Shown: positions 13,003-36,090 of the stretch, piece after piece
How the letters are laid out: the number at the start of each line of letters is the position of its first letter
Numbering within the stretch: position 1 is the stretch's first letter
DNA from: an uncultured Lachnospiraceae bacterium
Lineage (GTDB): Bacteria > Bacillota > Clostridia > Lachnospirales > Lachnospiraceae
Length of the DNA stretch: 64,000 nucleotides
Assembly: GCA_947385725.1 (NCBI GenBank)
Contig: CANDMD010000001.1
Coordinates: 2,660-66,659, forward strand
Reading direction: 5' to 3'
Notes under the pieces: model-generated
What the model saw: the letters and a program-made list of their open reading frames with translations, nothing else
What the model was told of the DNA's origin: nothing
The model's database searches: none
Translations under genes and position numbers: made by a program

Positions 13003-13905
13003 ATGAGGAAGATCACTTTATTGGCCACAGGTATTGCTTTGGGCATCGTATTATACGGATGCAGCGGAAAGGATCCGGCGGCTGACGGGGGACAGGCAGT
13101 TTCGCTGCAGGATATGGCGGTGGCTGTGAATGGTCAGGGGGACGTATTGCAAAGCGGCACGCAGGAAGCGGGACAGTTGAAAAGCGCACAGGGGGAAATA
13201 CAGCCGGGCGGTGTGGCGGGAGAAACCCTGCCCGGGGAAGCGGGAACGGCAGCAGGCACAGGGGAATCCGCACAGCCCGCAGCGACTCCGGCAGCATGGG
13301 ACACCCATGGCCGCGAACTGGAGGAAATCAAAGATTATCTGGCTCAATTTCCTGACACTTTGCAGGAAATATCGAAAGCGGAGTGTTATGTTGTACTGCA
13401 TGGCAATGAATACAGTGGAAGGGAATATCTGGATTCCTTTATGGAAAATGTGCGGACGGAAGTCCCGGATGAACTGGTGATTGTGCAGTTTACTGTGGAA
13501 GGGGATCCCATTCTGGTTTATTTGAATTATGACGCGGAGAACGTCTACTGTGTGGAGGATGCTTCCAGGGACGCCTGGGCGGGGAACGGTGAGAAATACT
13601 TCGAAAAGGATTATGATTCTGTCTGGCTTGCGGGAGAGGCAGATACGGATGGAAATTTCTATTTATCCCTCTATGCCCTGCAGGAGCAGGATATGGTGGT
13701 GGAAGTATTTACTGCATCAACGGAGCATCCGCTTGTGTGCGGTCTGCCTCTGGCGGAAGATTCTGCCATAAACCGGACCACGCAGACGCAGCCGGATTCA
13801 GAGGTGGAATCAAAGCTGCCTTCGTTTGAAAGGCTTGACAATGGAGAGGGAAACTGTATAGAACTGCACGATCTGCCGGATTGGGCGAAACCGCCTGCGC
13901 CTTGA
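13003..13905 (+). CDS. lipoprotein, function unknown
   Basis: GGAGGG RBS. Signal peptide with lipobox (LLATGIALGIVLYGC-SG), followed by a low-complexity linker and a globular domain. Confidence 0.6.
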   Translation: MRKITLLATGIALGIVLYGCSGKDPAADGGQAVSLQDMAVAVNGQGDVLQSGTQEAGQLKSAQGEIQPGGVAGETLPGEAGTAAGTGESAQPAATPAAWDTHGRELEEIKDYLAQFPDTLQEISKAECYVVLHGNEYSGREYLDSFMENVRTEVPDELVIVQFTVEGDPILVYLNYDAENVYCVEDASRDAWAGNGEKYFEKDYDSVWLAGEADTDGNFYLSLYALQEQDMVVEVFTASTEHPLVCGLPLAEDSAINRTTQTQPDSEVESKLPSFERLDNGEGNCIELHDLPDWAKPPAP

Positions 13906-13951
13906 TCCTGCGAAAGCGATACAGGCTTCCGCGCGGAGGAGGAGATGGGTT

Positions 13952-14800
13952 ATGAAAAAGAAAGCATGGGTCGCTATACTGACAGGTATCTTGCTTCTGG
14001 GAACTGTTATAGTTGTATGGAGTGCCTGGGGGCATTTGATTGTCGGCAGAAGACCGTTCCGAAATCTGGATCCATCGGAAATCCTGTCGGCTACAGTAAG
14101 ACTGACACCGCCGGATAAAACGATCCGGATCACGGACATAGAGGAGTTGACAGGCTGTTTAAAGGATGTGGTTGTCTATAATAAAGATAATTCCTATACG
14201 GAGTATGCCGGACAGGGGGTTACCTTTACCCTGATGCTGGCAGACGGTAAACAGGCGGAGGTTATGGCATATCATCCGTTCCTGGTGATGGATGGCGTTG
14301 GCTATCGGACGGAATATGAACCGTGCGAGGCGCTCCATGCATATGCGAACAGATTGCTGCAGGATGAAAATGCCATTGTAATATTGGAAGAACCGCCTCA
14401 ATTGACACTCCTGTGCGATCACACAGCTTTTGGCGCACTGCGGGGGACTTATTCGTGGCAGAAAAGAATTAGTGACGGAACTTCGACGGCAATAGAAGCC
14501 GACGGAGCCCATCCGCTGGACTGTAAAGACCGGTTGCTCAAATTTGATACGACGGAAACAACAGTCACTTTGGATTTTAAGGAAAAGCCCGATGCCATTT
14601 TAAGCGTCCAGTGCTGGAGCGAGGATCATTGGGGGAATCCCGATGCAGACAGTGAAGGCGTAGTCATGGATGGGTATGAAATGGAATTAAAACCGGGCGG
14701 ATATATTTATGAGATCATCGCTGAATGGAGTACGGAAGAGAGCGGCTATGGAGGCAGGGCACACTATTCCTTTTACGTGGAAGCTTTAGGGAAACGCTGA
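13952..14800 (+). CDS. membrane-anchored hypothetical protein
   Basis: Single N-terminal TM helix (WVAILTGILLLGTVIVVW). No recognisable motifs. GGAGG RBS. Confidence 0.5.
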   Translation: MKKKAWVAILTGILLLGTVIVVWSAWGHLIVGRRPFRNLDPSEILSATVRLTPPDKTIRITDIEELTGCLKDVVVYNKDNSYTEYAGQGVTFTLMLADGKQAEVMAYHPFLVMDGVGYRTEYEPCEALHAYANRLLQDENAIVILEEPPQLTLLCDHTAFGALRGTYSWQKRISDGTSTAIEADGAHPLDCKDRLLKFDTTETTVTLDFKEKPDAILSVQCWSEDHWGNPDADSEGVVMDGYEMELKPGGYIYEIIAEWSTEESGYGGRAHYSFYVEALGKR

Positions 14801-15152
14801 TGAAAGAGTTTCCTTAGAATAAGAATAAAATTTTGACAGTATGGCAGCGGTTTCCCTGGCGGAAACCTGCTGCCTTTGTATTTTACAGGAAATTCCGTCA
14901 CAGTGAGGGAAGAATGCGCGGCCCCGTACAGAGGGATACTCCTCCTGCTCGATTATCTGGAAATTATGCACAGGCAGCATGTTGTTTTTCACACCCACGC
15001 CACCGCGAGGTGTTTTCACACGTCTTTTGCGTGCAAAACCAGGGACAGCTGTGCGCGAAACCACTGTTTACGGTTTTTGTGCATATGTTGCTGGTCACGG
15101 AGTGAGCAGTAACGGCGGTATGACGGCGGGAGTACATTTTGGGATTTAAGTG

Positions 15153-15197
15153 TTGACACAGGAATTATGCAAGCGTATAATATGTTACACGGATGTA
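15153..15197 (+). promoter_or_regulatory. canonical sigma-A promoter plus TACA-N4-TGTA dyad (BlaI/CopY-type operator candidate)
   Basis: TTGACA (15153-15158), 17-nt spacer, TATAAT (15176-15181). The dyad TACAcggaTGTA lies at 15186-15197, directly downstream. Confidence 0.55.
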
Positions 15198-15262
15198 TAA
15201 CAAAAGATACGGAAACGCATGGATCGATATGATCAGATACAAAACAATAGGAGGTGTTTTAC

Positions 15263-15661
15263 ATGGGCAATATTCAGAAAAGGCTGGGAGAAGCGGAACT
15301 GGAGATCATGCAGGTGATCTGGAACAGTGCAGGTCCGGTTACTTCAAATTACATTCTGGCAGAAATAAAAGGGCAGAGGAAATGGCAGCTTTCCACTTTG
15401 ATGACTTCACTGGCGCGACTGTGTGACAAGGGATTTGCCAGCTGTGACCGTTCCACAGGCAGTAACCTGTATACGGCGGTTATTCCGGAAAATGAATATA
15501 AAGCCGGTGCCAGCAGGCATTTTCTGGAAAAACTGTATGGTAATTCCATACAGAATATGATAGCTTCGCTGTACAGCAGCAAGGATATCAAAGCTTCTGA
15601 TGTGGAGGAACTGCGGAGTTTTCTGGACAAAATGGAAGAAGAGTATTTAAGGGGGAAATGA
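15263..15661 (+). CDS. BlaI/MecI/CopY-family transcriptional repressor
   Basis: LGEAELEIMQVIWNSAGPVTSNYILAEI... is the typical penicillinase-repressor wHTH. GGAGG RBS. The stop overlaps the start of the M56 gene (ATGA). Confidence 0.9.
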   Translation: MGNIQKRLGEAELEIMQVIWNSAGPVTSNYILAEIKGQRKWQLSTLMTSLARLCDKGFASCDRSTGSNLYTAVIPENEYKAGASRHFLEKLYGNSIQNMIASLYSSKDIKASDVEELRSFLDKMEEEYLRGK

Positions 15662-17235
15662 GAATGACACATATTTTTCTGGCAGTCATGGAAATTTCGA
15701 TATCGATCAGTCTGCTGATAGCAGTGCTGCTTCTACTTACCCCTTTTTTAGACAGGCGATATGCCGCGAAATGGAAATATTGGATCTGGATATTTTTGGC
15801 ATTGCGGCTTATCCTTCCCTTTCACGGGGCGGATGTGAGAGCCGTGGTGGATGCCTGGTCACAGAAGGAATCCCGGTTTGAACGGAGGTTAGGGGAAAGG
15901 GATACGGAAGGTCTTCCCGAACAGACCATGCCTCAGGGCAGAATTATAATCGAGATACCGGCACGGATGATGACTCCCATTGCGCCTTCTTTCGAGGAAA
16001 ACAAAATGCATGTCACTCCGCTGGATATGGCTGCGTTTATCTGGATGATGGGAAGCCTGGCATTTATGGTAACACATCTGATCAGCTATGTCCGCTATAA
16101 AAATCTTGCATTAAAAAGAGGAAGCATAGTGAGAGACAAAGGGATCCTGCGCCGGGTATTTGAACTGAAACGGGAACTGCAGATAAAGGATTCCGTGCAT
16201 ATCATAGAATATCCGGAAGCTGCCAGCCCCATGGTGATCGGCTTTTTGCAGCCGGTTCTGATCCTGCCGGAAACGCAGTACGATCCGGTGGAACAGTACT
16301 TTATCCTGAAACATGAACTGGTTCATCTAAAGCGAAGGGATGTATTTATCAAATTGCTTCTGGTGGCGGCAAATGCGGTGCACTGGTTTAATCCTTTTGT
16401 CTGGATCATGCAGAAGGAAGCGGCTGTTGATATGGAATTATCCTGTGACGAGAGAGTGACCCAGGGGGCGGATCATGCAGCGCGGAAGGCATACACGGAA
16501 ACTTTATTGTCTACGCTTCACAGGCGATGTGCAGGGAGGACTGTCTTATCGACACAATTTTATGGAGGGAAGAAGATTATGAAGAAACGTTTTGAAAATA
16601 TTTTGCTTAAAACAGGTAAGAAAAATGGTGCGGTCATTCTGATGTGTGCGGTTCTGCTGACCTTGAGTCTGGGAACACTGGTAGGGTGCTCGGTTACAGG
16701 CGGAAATGGGGGAAATACTTCCGGCCAGGCGGGAAGTGGGAACATAGAAGGTCAGACCGGTCTGGCGCACAGTGGAAGTGCAGAGGGTACACCGGATCAA
16801 TCAGGAGGTGGACAGTCTTCATCCGGGACGGACGTGACTGATGCATCTAATACAGGAAATAACTTGACAGATGGAAATAATTTTTCAGGGGAAATCCTCG
16901 TTTACATTCATGAATTTGACGGGGCAACGCTTGCCTATGATGCGATTGAATGGGTTCAGGTGCCCGGTGAACGGGCGGCGGAGCTTGGGCTGACAGAGGA
17001 TGATGCGCCTTCCGGTTTCAGTATTTATAACGCGGAATCGGTGACGGAAGAACTGCCTCTTGCGAGTGACTGCACCTGCACGCTTTTGGACTGGACGGCT
17101 AATTATGTGGAGATGCAGGTTACAACGGAGGAATTAAAGGATATTCTGGCGGAGCGCGAAGGCACTGCCATTCCGTATCACCTGACAATCCAGGGAAATG
17201 AGATCATTGGTATTACAGAACAGTATGTGCCATAG
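15658..17235 (+). CDS. BlaR1/MecR1-like M56 family membrane metalloprotease (signal transducer)
   Basis: Zn motif ILKHELVHLKRRD, four or more TM helices, and a Gly/Ser-rich linker. The C-terminal extracellular domain is not a PBP-like domain. Confidence 0.85.
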   Translation: MRMTHIFLAVMEISISISLLIAVLLLLTPFLDRRYAAKWKYWIWIFLALRLILPFHGADVRAVVDAWSQKESRFERRLGERDTEGLPEQTMPQGRIIIEIPARMMTPIAPSFEENKMHVTPLDMAAFIWMMGSLAFMVTHLISYVRYKNLALKRGSIVRDKGILRRVFELKRELQIKDSVHIIEYPEAASPMVIGFLQPVLILPETQYDPVEQYFILKHELVHLKRRDVFIKLLLVAANAVHWFNPFVWIMQKEAAVDMELSCDERVTQGADHAARKAYTETLLSTLHRRCAGRTVLSTQFYGGKKIMKKRFENILLKTGKKNGAVILMCAVLLTLSLGTLVGCSVTGGNGGNTSGQAGSGNIEGQTGLAHSGSAEGTPDQSGGGQSSSGTDVTDASNTGNNLTDGNNFSGEILVYIHEFDGATLAYDAIEWVQVPGERAAELGLTEDDAPSGFSIYNAESVTEELPLASDCTCTLLDWTANYVEMQVTTEELKDILAEREGTAIPYHLTIQGNEIIGITEQYVP

Positions 17236-17338
17236 TGACAGGATGGAAGGTGCTCGTCGTTACCAAGATGGATCAGGACAGCTGGCGCAGTCCTTATGGA
17301 AATATCAAACCGATTATTCCATATATATAATATAAACA

Positions 17339-17367
17339 TTGACAGTATTCCACATGTATAATATAAT
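17339..17367 (+). promoter_or_regulatory. sigma-A-type promoter for the PadR operon
   Basis: TTGACA (17339-17344), 17-nt spacer, TATAAT (17362-17367). Confidence 0.5.
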
Positions 17368-17410
17368 ATGCAATGTATCAGAAGATAGGACATTGGAAAG
17401 GAATACGCAA

Positions 17411-17947
17411 ATGTTAAAACATGGGATTCTGGGCTTGATCAATTATCACGAAATGACAGGCTATGAAATTATGCAGGCATTCAGGGACTCCCTGAATTTC
17501 TTCTGGACGGCACAGACGAGCCAGATCTATCGGGAGTTACAGACGCTGGAGGAAAAGAAATGGGTCAGCAAGACTTTTGTACCGCAGCAGGGCAGGCCAA
17601 ACAAAAATGTGTACTCCATTACGGAGGAGGGAAAGTGTGAGTTGGTCAGATGGCTCTCAGACGGCAATCTGGGTCTGAATTTCCGTACACCGATCCTGAT
17701 GAAGGTTTTCTTCATGGGTGAACGAAGCAGGGAGGAGAACATACGCTATTTTGAGGGATTGAAATCTTATTGCGAAATATTTCTGGAAAGTCTTGCAGCT
17801 GTGCCGGAACATATAGAAACCTACAGTTCTTATCTGGACGACAGGGATAAATCCCTGTATTGGAAAATGACGGTGGAATACGGATGCAGGGAAATGCAGA
17901 TGTATATAGATTGGGCACAGGACTGTATTGATCAGCTGAAGGCTTAA
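17411..17947 (+). CDS. PadR-family transcriptional regulator
   Basis: MLKHGILGLINYHEMTGYEIMQAF...SQIYRELQTLEEKKWV...YSITEEGKCELVRWL is a PadR wHTH, followed by a C-terminal dimerisation domain. Confidence 0.85.
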   Translation: MLKHGILGLINYHEMTGYEIMQAFRDSLNFFWTAQTSQIYRELQTLEEKKWVSKTFVPQQGRPNKNVYSITEEGKCELVRWLSDGNLGLNFRTPILMKVFFMGERSREENIRYFEGLKSYCEIFLESLAAVPEHIETYSSYLDDRDKSLYWKMTVEYGCREMQMYIDWAQDCIDQLKA

Positions 17948-24151: not shown

Positions 24152-24211
24152 ATAAGTTAGTAAATTATAAATAAGTAAAATATAAACAAGTAAATCATTA
24201 ATAAGTAAATT
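24152..24211. repeat. four degenerate ~15-bp direct repeats containing AAGTAAA (iteron-like)
   Basis: ATAAGTTAGTAAATT / ATAAATAAGTAAAAT / ATAAACAAGTAAATC / ATTAATAAGTAAATT, located at the left edge of the AT-rich island. Confidence 0.6.
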
Positions 24212-24998
24212 GCGATTGACTAAAATGAAGCGGCGTGATACTTTATATTATAAAGATGGGTGGAATGGTTGTACGACTGTTGACTTGGTTTATACGAAAT
24301 ATTTGAAGGCTCTAATTTATTATGAAGGAATTCAGAGGATTGAGCAGTTTATGTTTCCGCAGGAAGCATTCCGTGAGATATTGCTGAATGCAGTGGTTCA
24401 CAAAGATTATAGTGCCTGTAACCCGATTCAGATCAGTATATATGAGGATAAAATATATATCTGGAATGACGGTGAGATGCCGCATGAATTGGATTCAACG
24501 GAGAAACTGTTCGAAAAGCATTCTTCCAAGCCGTATAATCCTAAGCTTGCAAATGTTTTCTTTAAAAGTGGTATGATAGAGGCATGGGGCAGAGGATTTG
24601 ACAAAATCAAGGAGGCATGCGTAAAGTATGATGGACGTCTGCCGGAATACAATATCAGTGCATCCGGAGTTATGGTGTTGTGTAAAGCATGTGACAAGTA
24701 TTTGGAATTGCTTTTTGGTTATAAGAATCATTCGCTCATTTCAAATGAGCGAATTATGAGTGAATTAATAAGTGGCAAAATGAAAGAACCGGTACAGCAA
24801 ATCCTTGATTATCTGAAAGATAATGATACAATTACAACTATGATAGGAAAGGAACTTACGGGTAAGTCAGAGGCTCAAGTCCGCAGATACTTAAAGGCAT
24901 TAACTGATTGTGGAGTTATAGAAAGCAAAAAGGTAACAAAAGGAAATATATATACAAGACTTTACGCAATTCGCTCGTTTCAAGTGAGCGAATTATGA
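24210..24998 (+). CDS. HATPase_c_4-type putative ATP-/DNA-binding protein with C-terminal wHTH; appears to lack the usual N-terminal AlbA_2 (Schlafen-like) domain
   Basis: FPQEAFREILLNAVVHKDY...IYIWNDGEMP...KPYNPKLANVFFKSGMIEAWGRGFDKI matches the family often annotated as 'putative DNA-binding / RecG-like ATP-binding' protein. The N-terminal ~130 aa of full-length members are not present, so it may be a 5'-truncated remnant. Confidence 0.55.
   Translation: MRLTKMKRRDTLYYKDGWNGCTTVDLVYTKYLKALIYYEGIQRIEQFMFPQEAFREILLNAVVHKDYSACNPIQISIYEDKIYIWNDGEMPHELDSTEKLFEKHSSKPYNPKLANVFFKSGMIEAWGRGFDKIKEACVKYDGRLPEYNISASGVMVLCKACDKYLELLFGYKNHSLISNERIMSELISGKMKEPVQQILDYLKDNDTITTMIGKELTGKSEAQVRRYLKALTDCGVIESKKVTKGNIYTRLYAIRSFQVSEL
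24730..24754. repeat. 25-nt perfect hairpin (copy 1 of 2)
   Basis: ATTCGCTCAT-ttcaa-ATGAGCGAAT, followed by TATGAG. Confidence 0.8.
24969..24993. repeat. 25-nt hairpin (copy 2 of 2)
   Basis: ATTCGCTCGT-ttcaa-GTGAGCGAAT (one G:T wobble in the stem), followed by TATGAG. It overlaps the stop codon of CDS 24210-24998 and is read in a different frame from copy 1. Confidence 0.8.
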
Positions 24999-25205
24999 GC
25001 GGAAAAGTAATTTAGAATAGTTTCAACTGCACCGTTGGAACTATTTTAATTTTGTTTGCCAAATGCTCTCCATAGTGTCATACTTTATAAGCTTTGTACC
25101 CCTAATGCCAATAACTATGAGGGTAATCAGCTATATAGAGGATGTTAAGGTATAAAGCGTAGTAATTATAGTGAAACATAGATTCATAAATCTTAATTAT
25201 GCAAA

Positions 25206-25234
25206 TTGCAATTGACCAAGAAAAATGATATAAT
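25206..25234 (+). promoter_or_regulatory. promoter candidate for the helicase/GHKL operon
   Basis: TTGCAA (25206-25211), 17-nt spacer ending in TGa (extended -10), TATAAT (25229-25234). This would give a ~185-nt AT-rich leader. Confidence 0.4.
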
Positions 25235-25420: not shown

Positions 25421-28400
25421 ATGGATAGCAATCAGATTACATGTAGTATGAAATCATATCTTCATATTTCAGAAAATCTTTTGGCCGAGTGGCTTGGTAA
25501 GCTTTTTCCGAAGACAACACCGGATTGGTGGGAAGTTTGTGTGATGCAAAAACTGAGTTACAATCAGAGGGAGATTGCGGAGAGCAAAGGTTTTACAAGT
25601 CTCGAGGATTTTGATTTGGCTTCTCTTTTGAGGATAGCAGATAAATCATGGTATACAATGCGGGAGGCAGCATATCTGCCAACACGGGAGCGGGAATGTA
25701 TCAGAGATATGATGCGTGTACGAAATAATTGGGCGCATTGTAGTACAATACTTCCTGGCAAGGATACTATTATTGAGGACCTTAAAACACTTCATCAATT
25801 CTTTGAACAAATGAAATGTGAGGATAAACTGGTCAACGAAATTGATCAGATGATAGAAGCGGTAAAGCTGCCGTCCACTGTGGATTTCAATGCGCTGTCA
25901 AAAAGTGGATCTGAGGAAACTGTATCAGATGTGTCAGGGGATGAAAATGAAATTGCAGAAAAGAGTCTGGTGTATTTAATTGGTGATCCTGCTGTACGTG
26001 GAGTTGTAATGTCCATTACAGATCTTGGTGATGTTAAGAAATATGATGTGTTTGTGGATGGAAATTTTAAAACTTATTATTCCGGACAGATCGCACCTGT
26101 GGTGGAGACTGTTTCTTATAACTGGGTGGATATCAGTACATTTCGATGCTATCTAACAGCATATCAGATTAATTACCCTTCTGGACGCGATTTATATTCT
26201 TTGAATTCTGCAAGAATAGATTTTGTGCCTTATCAGTTCAGGCCGGCATTGAAGCTGATTCATGCGGATGAACCCCGCATTCTGATTGCGGATAGTGTAG
26301 GTGTCGGCAAGACAATTGAGGCTGGACTTATCATTAAGGAACTACAGGCAAGAAAAGAACTTGAAAATGTCCTGATCATATGCCCTAAACCACTGGTGAC
26401 AGAGCGCAAATGGGAACTTGAAATGAAGAGGTTTGATGAAGAGTTTACTCCGGTTACCGGACCGGAACTTCATCAGATTATTTCGGATGTGGATAGGGAT
26501 GGGGAGTGGCCTGTCAGGTATAGCAAGATTATTATTCCTTATTCTATTTTGGATGGCCGTACATATAAAGGTAATTCTGGGAAAAAGGGTAAAGTCTTTG
26601 GACTGGAGGGTTTGGATCCGGCTCCGCATTTTGATCTTGTCATAGTTGATGAGGCGCATCATATCAGAAACGGCAGTCTGGAAAAGGAAAAAGCATTTGA
26701 ATATAAGTGTGTGAAATACTTTTGTGATCGTGCGGATGCAGTTGTTATGTTGACTGCTACCCCGTTACAGACCAGGGATGATGATTTGTATACATTGCTT
26801 AATGTCCTGAGAAATGATGTGATTTTTGATAAGCCTACATTCAATCTTATGGCGAAACCCAATGTTCATATTTCGGCGGCATCCAGTTTGATTCGTAGAG
26901 CCGGAAAAGACTGGCAGAAGCAGGCTGTCAGGGAATTGAAGGCTGTTCTTGAAACACAGTGGGGAGAGAATGTCATAGCGGCAAATCCCACGTATGCATC
27001 TATGCTTCAGACATTACAGCAGGAAAAAATTACAAGGGAGGAACGGGTAAAGCTTATTTCTGAAGCAGAGAGTCTGCACAGCTTTCATTCTATGCTCAAC
27101 CGAACCAGAAGAAAGGACATACAGGATTTCTGTATCAGACGACCGTTTACGCTGGCAGTGGAATTTACTCCTGCACAGCAGACTCTGTATGATGAGCTTC
27201 TTCGTTTTGAACAGAATGCCCTTATGCAGTTACATGGTGATGCAAGGTCGATCCCTTTTATGGTGTCCACTATTAAGAGACAGGCGGCAAGCTGTATATT
27301 CGGATTGGCGCCACATATTAGAGACCTTATCAAGCGAAGGTTTGTGCAAATAAATGGGGATCTGGATGGCAATATGGCAGAATTTGGATTTTCAGGGGCG
27401 GGCGCGGATACGTTAGAAGAATTGGCGCAAAATTTGCTGCAAATGGCAGACAGCCTTCCGGAGGACGATTCCAAATTTGACCAGGTGTTGTCAGTGATTC
27501 GAGAGAAACAAAAAGTTGAGAATAACAAAGTGATGATATTCAGTACATTCAGGTTTACGCTTGCATATCTGAAGAAAAAGCTTTTGGCAGCAGGGTTCAG
27601 GGTAGACCATGTTGACGGAGGCGTAAAGGATGCTGTACGTCAGGATTTGCGGGCAAAGTTCGAACTGCCAAAATCTGATCCGGAGGCACTTGATATTTTG
27701 CTGTTTACAGAAGTTGGCTCCGAGGGTCTTGATTATCAGTTCTGTGACATGATGATAAACTATGATTTGCCCTGGAATCCAATGAGAATTGAGCAGAGAA
27801 TCGGTCGTATTGACCGTCGTGGACAGAAAAGTGAGACGGTTAGTATATACAATGTTATCACAAATGGAACGGTTGACGCAGATATTTATTATAGATGCCT
27901 GATGAGAATTGGTATATTTGAGAGCAGTGTTGGTGAGTGTGAAGAAATCCTGGGTGAAATAGCCGACCAGATTGAGCATATTGTGGTTGATTCCACACTT
28001 ACAGAGGAAGAACGTAGAATCAAGCTGGAGCAAATGGCTGATAATGAAGTTCGAAAGATTCAGGAAATAAATCGACTGGAAGAGGAAGAAAAGGAACTTT
28101 TTGGGTTTGATTTATCGGAATACGTGACGAGCCAGGAGATTTATAATGCTGAGAATCCATGGCTGAACCAGAAGAATCTTCAGACTATGGTTGAGCGGTA
28201 TATGGAGGAAAGGCTTGGCAAGGGCACTTATTTGCTTGGGGAAGGTGATGTGAAGCAGTTGAGATTGTCTGCAAAAGCAAGGGAGATACTTCGAGAAGAT
28301 TTTAGAAAACTTCCAGCAGGCAGAAGTATGGTAAGGCAGAGTTGGGATGCATATTTAAAAGGAAAAAATCCGATGCATCCGGCTACTTTTGATTCTGATA

Positions 28401-28999
28401 CAGCAGAGAAAAGCCGGGATGCCTTTTTTATCACAGCAATGCATCCGCTTGCCAGGCAGGCTGCAGAATTTTATAGATCAAATGAGCAGGCATATATCAG
28501 GCTGCAGTATGCGAGTAATGGATTGCCTGCAGGAACATATCACTTTTCAGTTTATGCATGGAACTATGTTGGACTGAATCCGCATTTCAGATTGGTGGTG
28601 GTTTGTGATGATGATGTCGTTGCAGTCGAACTTCCGGACATTCTACAGGAATCTCAAAATGGAGTGCCTGCCGTGAAGCTGCAGCCTTCCGACTGGGATG
28701 CACTTGAGAGGAAACAGATAGAACTGTGGAAGAAAGAGAAGAGCCTTGAAGTGAAAGAAGCAGAAAAAGTATCTACTTCTAAGATTGAGAGTTTGACGAA
28801 TAATTTTCGGAATTGCCAGAGATCGCTTGAACAGAAGATTCTTGATACTGCTAATGAAAGCATTCAGAGGATGTATCACGGTGAATTGGAAAAAGCACGG
28901 GTAAAGTACGAAACAAAAGTTGCCTCTATCCATCAAAAGGCGGCACAGACAGATATTCATACAACATTGATTGCTAATGGCATACTGGAGATTGTTTAA
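25421..28999 (+). CDS. SNF2-family (SF2) helicase with an N-terminal HEPN-like (Rx4H) domain, 1192 aa
   Basis: Helicase motifs: I ADSVGVGKTIEAG, Ia ICPKPLV, II DLVIVDEAHHIRN, III MLTATPLQ, V FTEVGSEGLDYQ, VI QRIGRIDRRGQK. The N-terminal ~150 aa are helical and contain MMRVRNNWAHCS (R101-x4-H106). The C-terminal ~340 aa are unassigned. Confidence 0.85.
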   Translation: MDSNQITCSMKSYLHISENLLAEWLGKLFPKTTPDWWEVCVMQKLSYNQREIAESKGFTSLEDFDLASLLRIADKSWYTMREAAYLPTRERECIRDMMRVRNNWAHCSTILPGKDTIIEDLKTLHQFFEQMKCEDKLVNEIDQMIEAVKLPSTVDFNALSKSGSEETVSDVSGDENEIAEKSLVYLIGDPAVRGVVMSITDLGDVKKYDVFVDGNFKTYYSGQIAPVVETVSYNWVDISTFRCYLTAYQINYPSGRDLYSLNSARIDFVPYQFRPALKLIHADEPRILIADSVGVGKTIEAGLIIKELQARKELENVLIICPKPLVTERKWELEMKRFDEEFTPVTGPELHQIISDVDRDGEWPVRYSKIIIPYSILDGRTYKGNSGKKGKVFGLEGLDPAPHFDLVIVDEAHHIRNGSLEKEKAFEYKCVKYFCDRADAVVMLTATPLQTRDDDLYTLLNVLRNDVIFDKPTFNLMAKPNVHISAASSLIRRAGKDWQKQAVRELKAVLETQWGENVIAANPTYASMLQTLQQEKITREERVKLISEAESLHSFHSMLNRTRRKDIQDFCIRRPFTLAVEFTPAQQTLYDELLRFEQNALMQLHGDARSIPFMVSTIKRQAASCIFGLAPHIRDLIKRRFVQINGDLDGNMAEFGFSGAGADTLEELAQNLLQMADSLPEDDSKFDQVLSVIREKQKVENNKVMIFSTFRFTLAYLKKKLLAAGFRVDHVDGGVKDAVRQDLRAKFELPKSDPEALDILLFTEVGSEGLDYQFCDMMINYDLPWNPMRIEQRIGRIDRRGQKSETVSIYNVITNGTVDADIYYRCLMRIGIFESSVGECEEILGEIADQIEHIVVDSTLTEEERRIKLEQMADNEVRKIQEINRLEEEEKELFGFDLSEYVTSQEIYNAENPWLNQKNLQTMVERYMEERLGKGTYLLGEGDVKQLRLSAKAREILREDFRKLPAGRSMVRQSWDAYLKGKNPMHPATFDSDTAEKSRDAFFITAMHPLARQAAEFYRSNEQAYIRLQYASNGLPAGTYHFSVYAWNYVGLNPHFRLVVVCDDDVVAVELPDILQESQNGVPAVKLQPSDWDALERKQIELWKKEKSLEVKEAEKVSTSKIESLTNNFRNCQRSLEQKILDTANESIQRMYHGELEKARVKYETKVASIHQKAAQTDIHTTLIANGILEIV

Positions 29000-29034
29000 G
29001 ACACGTAAGAATCTATGTTTTGGAGGGAAGTACT

Positions 29035-32000
29035 ATGGAAAATGGGAGAATGGGTAGTGAGAACATTGTTAACGAAGTCATGCAAAATCAAGATAAAGAT
29101 GGCATGTTGCACCGTGCACTCGAAAAAATTATTCAGCTGTATACAGACAGAGCACACTTTGTATATGAGTTGTTACAGAATGCGGAGGATGCCGGTGCAT
29201 CTATGGTCAAGTTTGTACAATATCCGGACCGATTAGAGATGCTACACGATGGACACCCATTTTCAACGGAGAATTTACAGGGACTTTGTGATATAGGGAA
29301 ATCAGATAAGATCAATAAGCTAAACCAGATCGGAGAATTTGGCGTTGGCTTTAAGTCGGTCTTTGGCATTTGTGAAAAGGTTGGTCTTTTCAGCCATCCC
29401 ACAAGGGATGATTTTCAGAAGGGATATGTACAGTTTGCTGTGGAAATTTATGGCTTTACGAATCTCAAAGTTATTGATGATCAGATTATAGATGGCGGAT
29501 ATACTACAAAGTTTATATTCCCTTATTGCGTAGGACGCACATTCTCTGGTTTTGAGACGGTAGATAAGCTGAATGAGGTATTGTCGGGACGTCTACAGAA
29601 TCTTGGTATTACGACGCTTCTTTTTATGAAGAACCTGAAACTTATTGAGTATCAGATCGAATTGCCGATGCTTAAAAAATCTGGTTCTTATTTGTTGGAC
29701 AAGCATGCAATGAACGACCACTGTTCACTGGTATCTGCCATTGGAGAGTCTGATCATGAAGGTGATAAAGAAGAAGCTGCTTCTTACCTGATATTTTCCA
29801 GAAAGGTAGAGGGAATCCAGACGGGTAAGACAATTGATATTGCCTTTGCATTGAATGTGGGAGAAGATGGCAGCTATGATTTCAAACCATCAAAACATCC
29901 TTATATTTCTGTGTACTTTCCAACGGAAACAGAAAGTAAGCTGAAGTTTATCGTGCAGGGACCTTATCGAACTACGCCGAACCGGAGCAGTGTCCCGACG
30001 GATAATGAGGACAACATTGCATTGGCTGAGCAGACGTCCCAACTATTGAAAGACAGTATTATAGAACTGCGGGATGAGAGGAAGCTGGATTATAGTTTGT
30101 TAAACATTTTACCTATTGATCAAACAGTCTTTTATACATATTCTTTATACACCGATTCTTTGTTTCAAGGCATGTTTCAAGATATTGTTGATATGATGCA
30201 TGCTGAAAGGATATTATTATGTAAGGATCAGAAGACATACGCATCGGCAGACTGTGTGAAGATAGTCAGAAAAGCTGAACTTGCTGAACTGTTTACAGAC
30301 GAACTGTTAACTGAGTTGATCAATGATGAAATAGATTATTATTGGCTTCCGACTTATCTTACAGAAACAAGTGAACAGTATAAAACCTTGTATTCTTTTC
30401 TGACGGGACAGCAGGTGGGTATCAAAGTGATCCGTCCGGAGAATTTGAGCGATTATTTTAATGGAAACAAAAACTTCTTACCGAACCGGGACGACGAATG
30501 GCTGATTAAGTTCTATCAACTGTGCAAATCTGTACCTGCGGCTTTTTCAAGGCCGCGAGGTGCATTGTTAACAGCAGAAATTATTAAGACTTCTACCGGA
30601 GAATTTGTTGCTCCATACCGTAAAAGTGATGGAAGTACATCTTATCTCCCAAATGTATTTCTGTCGTCTGAGGGTATTGATGATATGGATGATTTTGCTT
30701 TTGTGAATGTAAAAATTTATCAACAGTGCAAGGATTTCTTCAAAGAAACCCTGAATCTTCATCAAAAACCAGGCGAATATGACTTGTTTGTCAAAGACTT
30801 TAAGAAAAGGAGTGAAAAAGGGCAAAGCGTTGCGGATGAACATAGGCATATTGCGGATGTTAAGAAATTATTGAAATACAAAACTGATTTTGAATATCAA
30901 GATGAAGTAGATAGCCTTATTAGAAAGTACCTTCTTTTGAAATGTATGAAAAAAGATGCAATCTCGTATGTGAATCCGTACAAAGAAACGGTTTACTTTG
31001 CTGTTAATTCTGAAGGTATGAGCATAGAGCAATATTGCAAAAATATTGTGGTCCATGCGTATGTGGATGTGGAATTTTACGAGAGTAATGGTATTAGTAC
31101 AGAATTATTGAAAGAGTTTGAGGTTAAGGAGAGTATAGCTATATACGAGAATACAATAAGTGGGGAATATTCTACAGGAAAACCAGGACGCCAGCCAGAA
31201 TGGCATACAGATGGAAACTTCAGGTGGAAGTTGACTTTGCAATATTTTATGTATGTATTGAAATACATTTCGGAGCATCCGGAAACTGTGGATTCTATGG
31301 CTAAGTCCAGTTTTATATTCAGATTTTTGCAGAACAATGAGTCGAAGCTTCAGGGAACGGTTTATGTAGGAGGAAATACGCCTAATTTAGTTAATGAAAA
31401 TGCAAATATTGTTGCCATACTTTGTGGGAAGATGTATTATACTGCTTACCCAGAGTGGGATGGGAAGTGGTTATACACAAAATCCGGGGAATTGGTTTCT
31501 CAAAAGGAAATATCCAAACATGATCTAAATCCGCAGCTTTATGGTGAAATTAAACCTGATTCTAATTTATATGAGATTCTTGGATTTAAGAAAAATGAAA
31601 CGGATTATTTGGAAGAGGCAACAAAGGATTATGACCGCCTGTCTGAGGAACAGAAGAAGCAGTATTTCGAAATTGAACTTCAGAGACGTTATGGAATCTC
31701 CATTACAGATCTTGATAACAAATTTGGAGAAAATCCAGTTGGTGGTTTAAGCAGTTCATCATCGATTACTCATGAGGATACGTATGAATTTCCTTCATCC
31801 AAAGTTAAGGATTGGGAGTACCTGCGCAAGCATGCCGCAGAGGTTTTATATTTTGCAAACCCTGTCAATTATGAGTATTGTGTACGTAAGCTTCGCACCA
31901 GCAGGTCTCGGGACGGGATCAGGGCTTATCTGAGGAATATGTATCAGGTTGATGGAGCGCATCAGTATGCCTGTCAAATGTGCCATGATGTATTTCCATC

Positions 32001-32319
32001 ACCGGGTGCGGAGATGTGCCAGATTGCAAATTCGCCGAAAGTAGAACTGGATCCGATGAATCTATGGTTTTGCCCTAATTGTGCAGCAAAATATAGAGAA
32101 ATGCGTAACGATGAAGTGGATACAGATAATTTTTTGAGAGAGATCAAGAATCTTGCTGATGAAGAGATAGATGATTCTGATCCGGTTAAAGTTCCATTTG
32201 CAGACAAGACTATCTGGTTTACCCAGACACATATAGCAGAAATCAGGGAGTTGATGGTTTTGCAGGAAGCAGCAGATAATTATAAGGATTCACCAGAAAA
32301 AAGTTTACAGGGTATCTAA
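29035..32319 (+). CDS. sacsin/MORC-type GHKL (Bergerat-fold) ATPase with a long unassigned region and a C-terminal zinc ribbon, 1094 aa
   Basis: GGAGGGA RBS 6 nt before the ATG at 29035 (the ORF track begins at TTG 29020). Motifs: N-box YELLQNAEDAGA, G1 LHDGHPF, G2 IGEFGVGFKSVFG. The C-terminus reads CQMC...about 30 aa...CPNC. Confidence 0.8.
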   Translation: MENGRMGSENIVNEVMQNQDKDGMLHRALEKIIQLYTDRAHFVYELLQNAEDAGASMVKFVQYPDRLEMLHDGHPFSTENLQGLCDIGKSDKINKLNQIGEFGVGFKSVFGICEKVGLFSHPTRDDFQKGYVQFAVEIYGFTNLKVIDDQIIDGGYTTKFIFPYCVGRTFSGFETVDKLNEVLSGRLQNLGITTLLFMKNLKLIEYQIELPMLKKSGSYLLDKHAMNDHCSLVSAIGESDHEGDKEEAASYLIFSRKVEGIQTGKTIDIAFALNVGEDGSYDFKPSKHPYISVYFPTETESKLKFIVQGPYRTTPNRSSVPTDNEDNIALAEQTSQLLKDSIIELRDERKLDYSLLNILPIDQTVFYTYSLYTDSLFQGMFQDIVDMMHAERILLCKDQKTYASADCVKIVRKAELAELFTDELLTELINDEIDYYWLPTYLTETSEQYKTLYSFLTGQQVGIKVIRPENLSDYFNGNKNFLPNRDDEWLIKFYQLCKSVPAAFSRPRGALLTAEIIKTSTGEFVAPYRKSDGSTSYLPNVFLSSEGIDDMDDFAFVNVKIYQQCKDFFKETLNLHQKPGEYDLFVKDFKKRSEKGQSVADEHRHIADVKKLLKYKTDFEYQDEVDSLIRKYLLLKCMKKDAISYVNPYKETVYFAVNSEGMSIEQYCKNIVVHAYVDVEFYESNGISTELLKEFEVKESIAIYENTISGEYSTGKPGRQPEWHTDGNFRWKLTLQYFMYVLKYISEHPETVDSMAKSSFIFRFLQNNESKLQGTVYVGGNTPNLVNENANIVAILCGKMYYTAYPEWDGKWLYTKSGELVSQKEISKHDLNPQLYGEIKPDSNLYEILGFKKNETDYLEEATKDYDRLSEEQKKQYFEIELQRRYGISITDLDNKFGENPVGGLSSSSSITHEDTYEFPSSKVKDWEYLRKHAAEVLYFANPVNYEYCVRKLRTSRSRDGIRAYLRNMYQVDGAHQYACQMCHDVFPSPGAEMCQIANSPKVELDPMNLWFCPNCAAKYREMRNDEVDTDNFLREIKNLADEEIDDSDPVKVPFADKTIWFTQTHIAEIRELMVLQEAADNYKDSPEKSLQGI

Positions 32320-32367: not shown

Positions 32368-32853
32368 TTATAAAAAATTTTCCGTCTGAGCCTTATACTC
32401 CTCTGTGATATGGGGCACCCCCGTAAACCGTCGCTTATATCCGGTGAGCACCATTTCCGGTTTCTCCTCCACTCTGTATTCCATCCTGTATCCTCCTTCT
32501 AATGACACTTTCAAAGACAGCCTTGAAAGGGAGTTTAACGTTGCGCCTTCCCTGCGCGCCTGGGATGGCGTGATTCCATGGAAACGGGTAAATGCCCTGG
32601 TAAAGCTGTCGGGATTGTCATAGCCGTATTTCAAAGCCACATCTATGACTTTTGCATTGCTTCCGGCCAGCTCACTGCCTGCCAGGGTCAGTCTGCGGCT
32701 GCGGATATATTCTCCCAAGGTGTATCCGCACAGAAGACCGAATACCCGCTGGAAATGATATCCGGTGGAATAACTCTGTCTGGCAATTTCATCATAATCC
32801 AACTCTTCCGCAATATGCGACTCCACGTAATCGATGGCTCGCTGTATTCCCAT
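32368..32853 (-). pseudogene. AraC/Rob-type regulator with a 3'-truncated GyrI-like effector domain
   Basis: The likely start is MGIQRAIDYVESHIAEELDYDEIARQS. The AraC HTH is complete (...GYDNPDSFTRAFTRFHGITPSQAR). Only ~55 aa of the GyrI-like domain follow (MEYRVEEKPEMVLTGYKRRF...) before a stop at the junction with AT-rich DNA. GC is host-like. Confidence 0.65.
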
Positions 32854-33093
32854 TACCCAGTCCGTGGCGTATCTCCTTGTCTGATGCGTTACAGTCCAAC
32901 CGCAACGTCCCTGTCTGCAAACAGGATAGCAGTTTTCCGGATGTGCTTCCCGACATTTTGTGGGGAGATGTGTAGGTTCAGAGGGTACCTGCTCCATGCC
33001 CTCGCCTGCCCGTTCAAATTGATCAGTATCATTATAAGTCATTTATAGTGGAAATCCAATTTTGATTTTAACCGTTTTTTTGCAGATGCTGCG

Positions 33094-33181: not shown

Positions 33182-34438
33182 ATGGATCAGGTATTTATAA
33201 CAGAGTTGACAATACAAAAGGTCAGGCATTTAGAGAATATTACCATCCCCTTGTCGAAGGATCATATAAAGCATCTGATTCTGACAGGAAAAAACGGAAG
33301 CGGTAAAACAAGTGTCGTGGAAGCGATGGCGGAATATTTAGAAAATGCTTTTACAAATGAGTTTTTTGAAGCAAATAAAAAGAATTTGGGTAATGCAATA
33401 GAAAATAAAAATAATGCCGTCAAAAGTGGAGCTGATGAAGCAGAAATTCTAAAATGGAATCATGATGTCTGTGCTCTTGAAAATAAAGTGATGCAAAATA
33501 GAAAAGGCTTAGATTTACATTTTAATCATGATATGAGCAGCATTGTGTGGCTAAAAGAAAAATATCATTATATTCTGGCTTATTATAATGCGGACAGGAT
33601 ATTTCAAACAAAGCAGCCCAAGCATGTGGAAAAGGTGGAATTGAGAGATGATTATGAACTGGCGGAATTTCCCCGAAATGATTTTGCAAAATATCTATTA
33701 GACCTGAAAATGACAGAGGCATTAGCAAGAAACAATAATAAAACGGAAAAAGCGGACGAAATAGCAAAATGGTTTGAGAAGCTGGAAGCACTTCTGAAAA
33801 AAGTGTTTGATGATGAATCAGTGAAGATATTATTTGATGAGGAAACGTTCCGGTTTCAGATTTCACAGCAAGGAAAAGAACTTTTTGATTTTAACACTCT
33901 GTCCAGGGGGTACCAGGCAGTGTTGGATATCGTTCTGGACATTATTATGCGGATGGTGAGCCGGACAAAGCGTTCATTTGACTTCCTGCTGTCGGGGATT
34001 GTGTTGATAGATGAAATAGATGCGCATCTCCACCTGGAACTACAGAAAAATATTATGCCTTTATTGACTACAATTTTTCCTAATATACAGTTTATTGTGA
34101 CTTCGCACTCGCCTTTCGTTTTGAACAGTCTGGAGAATACGGTGATCTATGATCTGGAAAATAATGTATTAGTAGAAAGTGGATTGAATAATGTGCCTTA
34201 TGACGGTATTGTAGAAGGGTATTTCAGGGCAGACAAAATGTCTGATGCATTAAAGGAAAAGTTTGAGAGATATAAAAACCTTGTCAGCAAAGAGAATCTT
34301 ACAGATGATGAGATGGGTGAAATTGCAGAATTAGAATTGTATTTAGATGAAATACCGGACTATCTCGCATGGGATATTACAACCGAGTATCAAAGGATGA
34401 AACTGGAATTTATGAATCGGGAGGACATAGATGGTTAA
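33182..34438 (+). CDS. ptuA: ABC/SMC-like AAA ATPase (AAA_21-type), Septu PtuA-like
   Basis: Walker A LTGKNGSGKTSV, coiled-coil-like insert, signature-like LSRGYQAVLDIV, Walker B VLIDEIDAHLH, H-loop VTSHSPFV. It overlaps the HNH gene by 8 nt. Confidence 0.6.
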   Translation: MDQVFITELTIQKVRHLENITIPLSKDHIKHLILTGKNGSGKTSVVEAMAEYLENAFTNEFFEANKKNLGNAIENKNNAVKSGADEAEILKWNHDVCALENKVMQNRKGLDLHFNHDMSSIVWLKEKYHYILAYYNADRIFQTKQPKHVEKVELRDDYELAEFPRNDFAKYLLDLKMTEALARNNNKTEKADEIAKWFEKLEALLKKVFDDESVKILFDEETFRFQISQQGKELFDFNTLSRGYQAVLDIVLDIIMRMVSRTKRSFDFLLSGIVLIDEIDAHLHLELQKNIMPLLTTIFPNIQFIVTSHSPFVLNSLENTVIYDLENNVLVESGLNNVPYDGIVEGYFRADKMSDALKEKFERYKNLVSKENLTDDEMGEIAELELYLDEIPDYLAWDITTEYQRMKLEFMNREDIDG

Positions 34439-35099
34439 AATAGAACGCTCTTTCCCGGCGCCTGAATCATTGGCAGAAGAAGCACGGAAGGTAAATGGAA
34501 GGTATGATAAACAAGATGTGATAGAGCAGCTAAAAGAAGACTTTCATAATAAATGTTATATATGTGAGTTGAAGGATTTACAGGATCCGAATGTGGAGCA
34601 TCTATTCCCGCATAAAAACGGGAAATATCCGGAGAGAAAGTTTGATTGGGAAAATCTTTTCTGGTCATGCGGGCACTGTAATGGAATAAAGAACAACAGC
34701 AAATACGATGAGGGGATCTTAGATTGTTGTAAGAGTGATCCCGAAAAAAGTATTTGTTTTCGGCTAAGAAATAGTGATGTAGCAATAGCTGTGTCTGATC
34801 CGGAGGATGATATACTTAGAAGGACAGCTTCTTTGATAACGGAAACGTTTTCGCTGAAAAATACGGGTATGAGAATATATACCAGCGATGAAAGGGTAAA
34901 ACAGCTTCAAAAGGAGATGAATTTACTGTATAAGCAGCTTGAAAAGATTCATAATGGTTCTGGTTCAAAAGTAACCATGAGAATGATCCGAAGCATGTTA
35001 AGTCGGGAATCTGCGTTTGCTGCATTTAAAAGATGCTATGTGCGTGATCATGCCATGGAATATCCGGAATTGCAGCAATACGTGGAATTAGATACATAA
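34431..35099 (+). CDS. ptuB: HNH endonuclease (TIGR02646-like), Septu PtuB-like
   Basis: CYICE...NVEHLFPHK...WENLFWSCGHCNGIKNN is an HNH/ββα-Me motif with flanking Cys pairs. 222 aa. Confidence 0.65.
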   Translation: MVKIERSFPAPESLAEEARKVNGRYDKQDVIEQLKEDFHNKCYICELKDLQDPNVEHLFPHKNGKYPERKFDWENLFWSCGHCNGIKNNSKYDEGILDCCKSDPEKSICFRLRNSDVAIAVSDPEDDILRRTASLITETFSLKNTGMRIYTSDERVKQLQKEMNLLYKQLEKIHNGSGSKVTMRMIRSMLSRESAFAAFKRCYVRDHAMEYPELQQYVELDT

Positions 35100-35190: not shown

Positions 35191-36090
35191 TTATTTCCAT
35201 TTTTCGATAAATCGATGGAATACTTCTCCAATATCCCCATCTATGCATATGGACCGCTCCTTGATCTCCTGCGGACATCCCGTCTCCCCGTAATTGATGC
35301 AGGCATACACCGCCTTCGGGTTCTCAGCCGTCATTCGCCAGAAGGGGTATTTGATGATTCCGGGGGTGTTATTTCCAACACCCAATTCCAGAAATAAGAT
35401 TTTCTGTCCTTTATGGAGACGTATAAAAGCCTGATACCTGTCTGCGGCTTTATGCCAGCCGCTGTCTTCAACAAAGGTACTGTCCGCCCGCAGGTTCATT
35501 GACATAGGCGCGCCGCATACGGGACAATGCGGGATTAACCCGGATGGGATACGCATATTTTCCTGTTCGGCGACCATTTTTCTGATCACGGTTTCGTTGT
35601 CGTAAGTTTCGTCATGGCAGGGCTTTGAGCATTGCCACAATCCATAATCGCCCTGTGTATAAAACAATCTTTGCTTATCGAAACCTGCCTTCTGGAAACA
35701 GTGGTCTACATTGGTTGTCAGCACAAAATAGTCCTTATCCTGTACCAGCCTGAATAAATCGTCGTAAACGCCTTTCGGGGCATTTTGATATCGGTTCATA
35801 TCAATGTAACGGCTCCAGTACGCCCAGTATTCCTCCAATGTCTCGAAGGGATAGAAGCCGGCCGAATACAAATCCTGAAAGCCATATTTTGCTATAAAGT
35901 CCGGGAAATTGTCTGTAAAGCGTTTTCCGGAATAAATAAATCCGGCAGAAGCAGACAGGCCTGCTCCTGCCCCGATCACAATAGCATCGGCGCTTTCCAT
36001 TTCCTGCTTCAATTTTTCGATGGATCGCCTTGTCTCTGTATCACGGCAATTACTGCCGGCTGATTTCGTAGTCATTGTCCTTGCATACAT
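35191..36090 (-). CDS. SIR2-family protein (sirtuin-like) with Gln in place of the canonical catalytic His
   Basis: Rossmann motif VIGAGAGLSASAG, then TTNVDH, then CxxxC...CPVC zinc module. The position equivalent to the sirtuin catalytic 'HG' reads YTQGDYG. Confidence 0.75.
   Translation of the reverse strand: MYARTMTTKSAGSNCRDTETRRSIEKLKQEMESADAIVIGAGAGLSASAGFIYSGKRFTDNFPDFIAKYGFQDLYSAGFYPFETLEEYWAYWSRYIDMNRYQNAPKGVYDDLFRLVQDKDYFVLTTNVDHCFQKAGFDKQRLFYTQGDYGLWQCSKPCHDETYDNETVIRKMVAEQENMRIPSGLIPHCPVCGAPMSMNLRADSTFVEDSGWHKAADRYQAFIRLHKGQKILFLELGVGNNTPGIIKYPFWRMTAENPKAVYACINYGETGCPQEIKERSICIDGDIGEVFHRFIEKWK

Follow-up and report, generated by a model that had tools for sequence, protein, structure and literature searches.

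Organization of the locus

We analyzed a stretch of 64,000 nucleotides (the window) from an uncultured Lachnospiraceae bacterium (assembly GCA_947385725.1, contig CANDMD010000001.1, positions 2,660 to 66,659), in which two very large genes, here called A and B, had been singled out from the sequence as a candidate antiphage system (the original prediction). Gene A (25421..28999, forward strand) is an open reading frame (ORF) of 1192 amino acids with an ATG start and encodes a predicted HEPN-SNF2 protein. Gene B (29035..32319, same strand) codes for 1094 amino acids from its ATG, giving a predicted GHKL ATPase of the sacsin/Hsp90 type that ends in a zinc module. The genes are codirectional, and 35 nt separate the stop codon of A from the ATG of B, which has its own ribosome-binding site (GGAGGGA, 29022..29028, forward strand), read directly from the sequence 6 nt ahead of the start codon. 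We took the ATG at 29035 as the start of B; the mechanical ORF list opens this frame at a TTG, at 29020. The list and the sequence agree on the two large adjacent frames, the spacing and the separate ribosome-binding site that the original prediction described, and all the motifs it quoted from both proteins were found in place. The AT-rich island was also evident, with a GC content of 0.36 to 0.43 over 24 to 36 kb versus ca. 0.50 in the flanks. Upstream of A, a consensus scan pointed to a tentative promoter (TTGCAA-17-TATAAT, extended −10 TG; 25206..25234, forward strand). Before it lies a terminator-like hairpin with a 16-bp stem (25012-25049) that ends the upstream ORF of 262 amino acids (24210-24998, forward strand).

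Domain architecture of protein A

Judging from its profile matches, protein A is a RapA/DrmD-like SNF2 ATPase fused to a Swt1-type HEPN domain. The N-terminal domain (residues 20-130, 25478..25810, forward strand) matches PF18731 (HEPN_Swt1) with 30.9 bits, above the cutoff of 27.5, and contains the motif RNNWAH (101-106), i.e., R101...H106. A precomputed match to the same family was found in 119 of the 120 closest homologues of A, and the alignment of those bearing the domain indicated that R, N, W, A and H of RNxWAH are kept in 48 or 49 of 49. A therefore shows a conserved Rx4-6H besides the profile match to the fold, the two features by which the HEPN superfamily is recognized, and its N terminus is, on this basis, a Swt1-type HEPN domain and putative endoribonuclease. 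It is followed by a small beta-rich linker domain (residues ca. 183-240, 25967..26140, forward strand), delimited by the alignment and the N-terminal sequences, which is retained even in the homologues without HEPN and may, by its sequence appearance, be SH3/Tudor-like.

The SNF2 ATPase core (residues 278-801, 26252..27823, forward strand) consists of two RecA-like lobes with an insertion between them, recognized by Pfam as SNF2-rel_dom (287-513) and Helicase_C (685-801). Its motifs GVGKT (294-298), DEAH (410-413), TATPLQ (445-450) and QRIGRIDRRGQ (792-802) are kept at most positions in 56 or 57 of 57 homologues. Thus, both domain calls of the original prediction for A held, with HEPN_Swt1 above the Pfam cutoff and SNF2 confirmed. 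The C-terminal part of ca. 340 amino acids, which had been left unassigned, turned out to lie largely under known profiles, and we recognize there a DrmD/RapA-type region (residues 802-1062, 27824..28606, forward strand). The best PADLOC model for A is DrmD (1.5e-106, over residues 238-1062), followed by BrxHI, DrmA, HmaA and DpdE, while among the NCBIfam models RapA spans residues 256-1040 and DISARM_DrmD reaches 285 bits. The nearest relative with a solved structure is RapA (6e-29).

Domain architecture of protein B

At the N terminus of B, the motifs ELLQNAEDA, HDGHPF and GEFGVGFKSVFG lie within residues 45-111 and mark a Bergerat-fold ATP-binding domain (residues 25-122, 29107..29400, forward strand) that matches the sacsin SRR structure. 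Pfam SACS was found on residues 25-120 (2.3e-15), and the only NCBIfam model recovered was that of the sacsin ATP-binding domain (83.7 bits, cutoff 50). A profile built from 95 homologues, from a family with more than 2500 members, retrieved the sacsin SRR structures 5v44-5v47 (E ca. 1e-10) and Hsp90 N domains in a sequence search of the PDB. The residues E45, N49, D52, G73, G100, G103, G105 and K107, belonging to the N box and the G boxes, are invariant in the 95 sequences. An AlphaFold2 model of the full-length protein (predicted local distance difference test [pLDDT] 84.9) aligned in Foldseek with full-length Hsp90, TRAP1 and Grp94 over 570 to 730 columns (E 2e-10), and neither MORC nor MutL structures appeared among the 50 matches listed. 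Pfam HATPase_c_3 was just below its cutoff (24.0 versus 25). Because Pfam, NCBIfam, the PDB sequence search and Foldseek all agree, B is best assigned to the sacsin/Hsp90 branch rather than to MORC, as a GHKL ATPase with a predicted Hsp90-like N and M fold. Of the "sacsin/MORC-type" label given originally, the sacsin half stands on SACS, the NCBIfam model and the SRR structures, whereas the MORC half is not supported by these searches. Neither are the following ca. 900 amino acids, in which no motif had been recognized originally, devoid of recognizable features. Foldseek matches to Hsp90/TRAP1 and hhalign comparison with NOV_C-bearing proteins place Hsp90-middle-like and further domains in residues 123-898 (29401..31728, forward strand), with an Hsp90-like N and M fold in the model and homology to Tiamat-type proteins up to residue ca. 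900.

The end of B is a family-specific module (residues 919-1080, 31789..32274, forward strand) with a CQxC...CPxC pattern, C980xxC983...C1013xxC1016 in the window protein, and an invariant FTQxHxxE helix, which stands where Tiamat has a NOV_C nuclease. Residues C980, C983, E1004, C1016, F1062, T1063, Q1064, H1066 and E1069 are invariant in the 95 sequences and C1013 is present in at least 90% of them; the cysteine pattern is found again in homologues with only 25% identity. There was no Pfam match to NOV_C/DUF3883 (PF13020) in B. A profile of residues 700-1094 recovered 765, 326 and 141 representative clusters at E values of ≤1e-3, ≤1e-10 and ≤1e-30, respectively. Nearly all are proteins of ca. 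1020 to 1220 amino acids in which the location of the match is the same. The same region gave no match in a sequence-profile search against the PDB, and its separate model (pLDDT 79) had no significant Foldseek match there. The top weak ones were HNH nucleases, 4h9d and Cap5 8fmf among them (E 0.7 to 5, probability ≤0.33). The layout (CxxC, a beta-hairpin and CPxC at the start of a helix, as in "ELDPMNLxxCPNCAxxYR") does resemble a zinc-bound HNH. However, the positions of the catalytic His and of the helix His or Asn are occupied by Q or I and by Ala, respectively, in nearly all members, the Ala of the helix throughout the family, and a "KEHE" variant with His at the expected place was seen in one distant clade only. 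The module is, therefore, probably a noncatalytic zinc module.

Two variations at this end of the protein deserve mention. Most B homologues (P0008-P0120) have ca. 1170 to 1187 amino acids due to an extra C-terminal tail of ca. 80 residues after an acidic linker, with the consensus GTDVYKxYIGKR...GxVxxCDGKY...GLI, absent from the window protein and its nearest relatives (P0002 and P0004-P0006). Among the representatives, one protein of 2197 amino acids (P0368) has two sacsin-like ATPase modules (ca. 24-120 and ca. 1532-1626), a tandem SRR architecture that recalls eukaryotic sacsin, and shares the zinc module of B (31% identity over 217 residues). We considered whether it could be an A-B fusion and rejected this, since BLASTP shows no similarity to A.

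Conservation of the A-B pair

We scanned one genome per species for B, obtaining 80 loci in which A was sought by tblastn. At 60 of them the B match extended past residue ca. 880 and a full-length A homologue was found directly upstream on the same strand. Two (L023 and L027), with the match cut by the contig end, were uninformative for A, a shorter B-like protein without A upstream was present at a single one (L045), and the remaining 17 had only the N-terminal part of B (ca. 540 to 660 residues), also with no A upstream. A thus lies directly upstream at 60 of the 61 informative loci with a match past residue ca. 880, down to a B identity of 25%. Of 59 loci, 41 have a gap of at most 40 nt between the genes, which overlap in 7. 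This linkage is far beyond chance and amounts to obligate synteny, bearing out the expectation that the two genes would be conserved neighbors.

According to the record titles, the paired loci come from Bacillota, Bacteroidales, Planctomycetota, Spirochaetota, Akkermansia (Verrucomicrobiota), Chloroflexota, Latescibacterota, Gammaproteobacteria, Alphaproteobacteria, Terriglobia (Acidobacteriota), Nitrospirae, Thermodesulfobacteriota, Marinamargulisbacteria and Cloacimonas. Searches of plasmid and phage collections with tblastn retrieved N-terminal Tiamat-like matches only and no full-length B, so that the pair was not seen to travel on known plasmids or phages. Between the same pairs of genomes, B had, for example, 73% identity versus 92 to 98% for A. 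B is, therefore, the faster-diverging component, a pattern that would be expected of the one in charge of recognition. A different arrangement was found in Thioalkalivibrio sp. HK1 (L039, 6043-13111), where two B paralogues (1031 and 1041 amino acids) stand in tandem behind A.

Association with Type III Mod and Res genes

Eighteen of the 60 paired loci have a Type III Res-like gene immediately ahead of A, and Mod precedes Res in 13 of these. The intergenic gaps are 3 to 25 nt, as in an operon. The identity of Res parallels that of A: compared to L001, the values for Res and A are 91.6 and 91.9% in L003, 98.0 and 98.4% in L007, 86.6 and 89.4% in L029, 62.6 and 63.4% in L010, and 60.3 and 60.6% in L013. 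The parallel was seen in L001, L003, L007, L010, L013, L015, L018, L020, L029, L032 and others, while Mod and B diverge otherwise than Res and A. By this measure, Res and A are one coinherited unit in the Res-bearing lineages and, because their identities run in parallel, Mod-Res-A-B would have been inherited as one block there for a long time. On the other hand, Mod and Res are absent from 42 of the 60 loci, including all distant phyla. In the Res-free loci, the genes upstream of A code, among others, for FHIPEP, a trypsin-like peptidase, an SMC-like ATPase and proteins without family match, and neither methylases nor restriction enzymes were among these neighbors. Searches by tblastn with related proteins found no Mod, Res or PDC-S68 homologue in the window. 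From these figures (18 loci with Res, 42 without), the pair appears in two forms, on its own as two genes or embedded in a larger operon linked to restriction-modification (R-M). Hence, the lack of a methyltransferase, pointed out in the original prediction, is right for the window and does not extend to the family.

Genomic and defense context

The "Septu-like pair" suspected next to A and B is a true Septu (33182-35099), 0.9 kb downstream of B, with PADLOC values of 7e-121 for PtuA and 1.5e-85 for PtuB and an overlap of 8 nt between both genes. From 25390 onward, the window is matched at 99% identity by contigs from four other samples (L081 to L084), which share a block that comprises A, B, an AraC-type regulator, Septu, a SIR2-like ORF and DUF6688. 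Upstream of this point, the sister contigs are unrelated to the window and carry PD-Lambda-5 A and B (1.3e-52 and 1.2e-114), an AAA_15/PtuA-like ATPase and an ORF of 66 amino acids. The recombination breakpoint is 31 nt ahead of the ATG of A, and the promoter region of A is consequently strain variable. The region behaves as a strain-variable defense hotspot.

In other genomes, the neighbors include a Type III Mod (5e-157) with a Res-like helicase, an MkoA-like helicase with a PIN protein, PglZ/BREX (4e-237), UvrD/GajB-like helicases and PDC-S68 (E 0). The latter, a PADLOC candidate of ca. 1210 amino acids and RecD-like, adjoins the pair, either behind B or ahead of A, in 13 of the 60 loci (L001, at 13563-17801, and L003, L004, L006, L007, L018, L029, L034, L036, L041, L042, L047 and L074), including pairs with only 25 to 32% identity to the B of the window. 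In five loci, PDC-S68 is followed by an ORF of ca. 200 amino acids without family match. The L001 locus (Butyrivibrio sp. M55) is a six-gene operon in the order Mod, Res, A, B, PDC-S68 and a 200-amino-acid ORF. Rather than being there by chance, PDC-S68 may be a functional partner that recurs with the pair. The pair was accordingly found in the defense contexts foreseen for it, adjoining Septu, PD-Lambda-5, Type III R-M, BREX, Mokosh-like genes and PDC-S68. A PADLOC scan of 117 nonredundant flank proteins gave mostly redundant matches to GajB/UvrD profiles and yields no enrichment rate.

Comparison with named systems

No PADLOC v2 system model was matched by both A and B, and a full-text literature search found no paper naming the pair, in agreement with its presentation as an uncharacterized system. 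The closest named relative is Tiamat (TmtA), a single-gene defense system that reportedly goes back to work by Millman and coworkers in 2022. The only PADLOC models matched by B were those of TmtA, the best with 3.4e-52 over residues 13-709 (profile positions 12-686 of 1302), and hhalign of B against NOV_C-bearing proteins extended the similarity (136-693, E 3e-86; 733-898, E 1.6e-7). B and TmtA share a sacsin/Hsp90-type GHKL ATPase and a homologous middle part of ca. 800 residues. They differ at the end, which in TmtA-type proteins is a NOV_C/DUF3883 PD-(D/E)xK nuclease and in B, over the last ca. 190 residues, the four-cysteine zinc module. The standalone relatives that resemble B only in the N-terminal part have ca. 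1030 to 1100 amino acids, and six of eight scanned had a C-terminal NOV_C/DUF3883. The TmtA type is also a single-gene system, listed as such among those with a PD-(D/E)xK (bioRxiv 10.1101/2024.10.26.620412), whereas B practically always comes after the SNF2 gene A, usually with HEPN. Since residues ca. 1 to 900 are homologous to TmtA-type proteins, a genome annotator could already label B as Tiamat-like.

In protein A, the SNF2 core and the C-terminal part can be aligned with DrmD of DISARM, BrxHI/HII, DpdE and RapA. Its DISARM_DrmD score, however, is under the NCBIfam cutoff of 610, notwithstanding the PADLOC value. The HEPN domain is outside the DrmD profile, which starts at residue 238. 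Among the ten island ORFs scanned with PADLOC, there was no DrmB, DrmC or DrmM/methylase, and the DrmA profiles matched A alone.

The original prediction had seen a resemblance to Hma, which is made up of a HEPN-DUF499 ATPase, an N6-methylase and an SNF2-DUF3883 helicase (PMC12839542, PMC11232893). Hma and the systems related to Type 1 BREX do share with the pair a Swt1/Abi2-type HEPN, an SNF2 helicase, a large ATPase and an R-M-like context. In Hma, however, the ATPase is of the DUF499/BrxC-like AAA+ type, HEPN is on the ATPase, the DUF3883 nuclease is on the helicase, and a methylase is part of the core. In PADLOC, HmaA covered A in part only (8.4e-45; best stretch, 665-872), Pfam showed no NOV_C/DUF3883 in A, and the HmaC models did not match B. 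No N6-adenine methylase (HmaB) was found in the scanned ORFs flanking A and B, and tblastn of a related Mod was negative in the window. With a DUF499 ATPase instead of a GHKL one in Hma, the resemblance is superficial.

Operons of GHKL ATPases and SNF2 helicases in R-M contexts are known for MORCs, often with HNH nucleases (Iyer, Abhiman and Aravind 2008, PMC2292703). The likeness to these MORC/paraMORC-SNF2 operons lies in the GHKL gene adjoining a SWI2/SNF2 helicase in a restriction-like context. However, B appears to fall in the sacsin/Hsp90 branch (Pfam SACS, Foldseek Hsp90), and sacsin is not mentioned in that paper (0 occurrences). Anantharaman et al. 2013 described, in general terms, HEPN domains fused to SWI2/SNF2 helicases of R-M systems, as well as to paraMORC GHKL ATPases; the A-B operon was not described. 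Where HEPN is fused to a helicase or ATPase of an R-M-like system, it has been predicted to act as a suicide or backup RNase (PMC3710099, PMC12839542). Eukaryotic sacsin (SRR repeats, DnaJ and HEPN) also combines functionally a sacsin-type ATPase with HEPN, but within one polypeptide and with another HEPN family, whereas here a Swt1-type HEPN is on a separate SNF2 protein.

Proposed function and alternative explanations

We consider it somewhat better than an even bet (a probability of roughly 0.55) that A and B make up a self-contained two-gene module against phages or other mobile genetic elements, an as yet unnamed relative of Tiamat. Going by sequence, this module is probably a real and autonomous defense unit. 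Most likely, it would be a split and nuclease-swapped Tiamat relative with a DrmD/RapA-like HEPN-SNF2 partner, rather than something categorically new. B would then be a Tiamat-family ATPase that lost the NOV_C/DUF3883 nuclease, has the four-cysteine zinc module in its place, and works as an ATP-driven clamp or sensor of some feature of the invader, either DNA or a phage protein. A would carry out ATP-dependent translocation on nucleic acid and, upon activation, its HEPN RNase would cut RNA, leading to growth arrest or abortive infection. In the lineages with Type III-like Mod and Res, the pair would probably be a second layer coupled to restriction, in parallel to PrrC with EcoprrI or to the HEPN-DUF499 ATPase in Hma; PrrC is a HEPN nuclease that accompanies EcoprrI. 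The window copy would be the minimal two-gene form. A bolder version, rather unlikely in our opinion, has the Hsp90/sacsin-like ATPase sensing a phage protein as a chaperone "client" and licensing a RapA-like motor equipped with a transcript-destroying HEPN; the pair would then be the prokaryotic counterpart, or the source, of the SRR-HEPN combination of sacsin.

Several observations weigh against a self-contained module with an RNase output. Nine of 57 A homologues do not have HEPN, which makes this domain frequent but dispensable and leaves SNF2 plus GHKL as the conserved core. Going by these variants, the main output may lie elsewhere and the RNase be an accessory. The HEPN RNase output put forward originally is thus sustained insofar as the motif is conserved where the domain is present, but it cannot be the mechanism of the whole family. 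Besides, with Res running in parallel to A, the ancestral unit of the clade may have had four genes and the window pair may depend on a lost partner. The breadth of the distribution should also be taken with care, since many of the loci are bins of metagenome-assembled genomes and near-identical loci are labeled differently, so that taxon labels may be wrong.

The link to restriction leads to an alternative that we regard as improbable, although it is the one to be taken most seriously. The pair could be an accessory of a Type III-like R-M system (Mod-Res-A-B) and the window copy an orphaned remnant with little activity of its own. This would explain the Res genes upstream of A, some with Mod, at operon-like distances, and the matching Res and A identities. 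A subclades with 76% and with 57 to 63% identity both carry Res, so that the window lineage would probably have lost it. Nevertheless, most loci, with all the distant phyla among them, do without Mod and Res, as does the window, and its ORFs are intact, with all catalytic motifs, and 99 to 100% identical across several independent samples, which is a poor fit to decay. Somewhat more doubtful is a DNA-directed output, through a cryptic HNH-type nuclease in the zinc module of B or through blocking or remodeling as in MORC/SNF2 systems, with HEPN as an optional backup. The HEPN-less variants do need some other effector or a nonnucleolytic mode, the zinc layout is HNH-like, the sole Foldseek matches were HNH nucleases, the "KEHE" clade has the His, and MORC-SNF2 operons often include such enzymes (PMC2292703). 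But these matches were nonsignificant, most members, the window protein among them, lack the presumptive catalytic His, Ala occupies the helix position throughout, and the HEPN motif is strongly conserved wherever the domain occurs.

We give very little credit to a nonimmune role in housekeeping or stress, for example, as a RapA-like transcription-recycling motor with an Hsp90-like chaperone, even if RapA is the nearest solved relative of A, the nearest folds of B are Hsp90 chaperones, and eukaryotic sacsin is reported to be a chaperone in work cited in PMC3710099. The patchy distribution across phyla, the low-GC island, the strain-variable hotspot with PD-Lambda-5 and Septu, the recurrent linkage to R-M, BREX and PDC-S68, the conserved toxin-type HEPN motif and the homology of B to the Tiamat family all speak against it.

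If the two-gene defense module holds true, it would be a widespread addition to the defense catalogue, with the 326 clusters found at E ≤1e-10 and about a dozen phyla by record titles. It would suggest that Tiamat is constructed from parts, the nuclease being replaceable by a zinc module together with a HEPN-SNF2 protein encoded apart. No description of the mechanism of Tiamat was found in the literature searched, and a natural "split" version would make the sensing and effector roles separable for study. The pair would also link Tiamat, the Hma/BREX-related systems and the DISARM-like SNF2 proteins through HEPN_Swt1, SNF2, DUF3883 and the large ATPase. Furthermore, the sacsin-type ATPase, which belongs to a human disease protein with a poorly understood biochemistry, would gain a tractable model in bacteria.

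Additional ORFs at the locus and in HEPN-less variants

Five of the nine HEPN-less loci (four Latescibacterota and one Caldilineaceae) have an extra, conserved ORF of ca. 205 amino acids between A and B (9253-9870 in L038, ca. 9262-9870 in L043, L044 and L067, and 9227-9868 in L049). We considered a relocated HEPN and discarded it, since a hidden Markov model of the A HEPN domain matched none of the 638 flank proteins and neither Pfam nor PADLOC recognized the ORF, which may code for an alternative effector or for an adaptor.

In the window, the gene between the A-B pair and Septu codes for an AraC/MarA-type regulator of 224 amino acids (32368-33042, reverse strand), conserved in the sister contigs, which might control A-B or Septu. 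Beyond Septu is the weak SIR2-like ORF of 299 amino acids (35191-36090, reverse strand), with Pfam SIR2 below the cutoff (7.6e-4), an NCBIfam deacylase match (1e-5) and no PADLOC match; it could be a divergent SIR2-type effector. Finally, the ORF of 262 amino acids upstream of A has HATPase_c_4 and a C-terminal helix-turn-helix-like region, with weak CARF/Csa3-type matches. It does not have the N-terminal part usual in such proteins and may be a truncated Schlafen/AlbA_2-type regulator.

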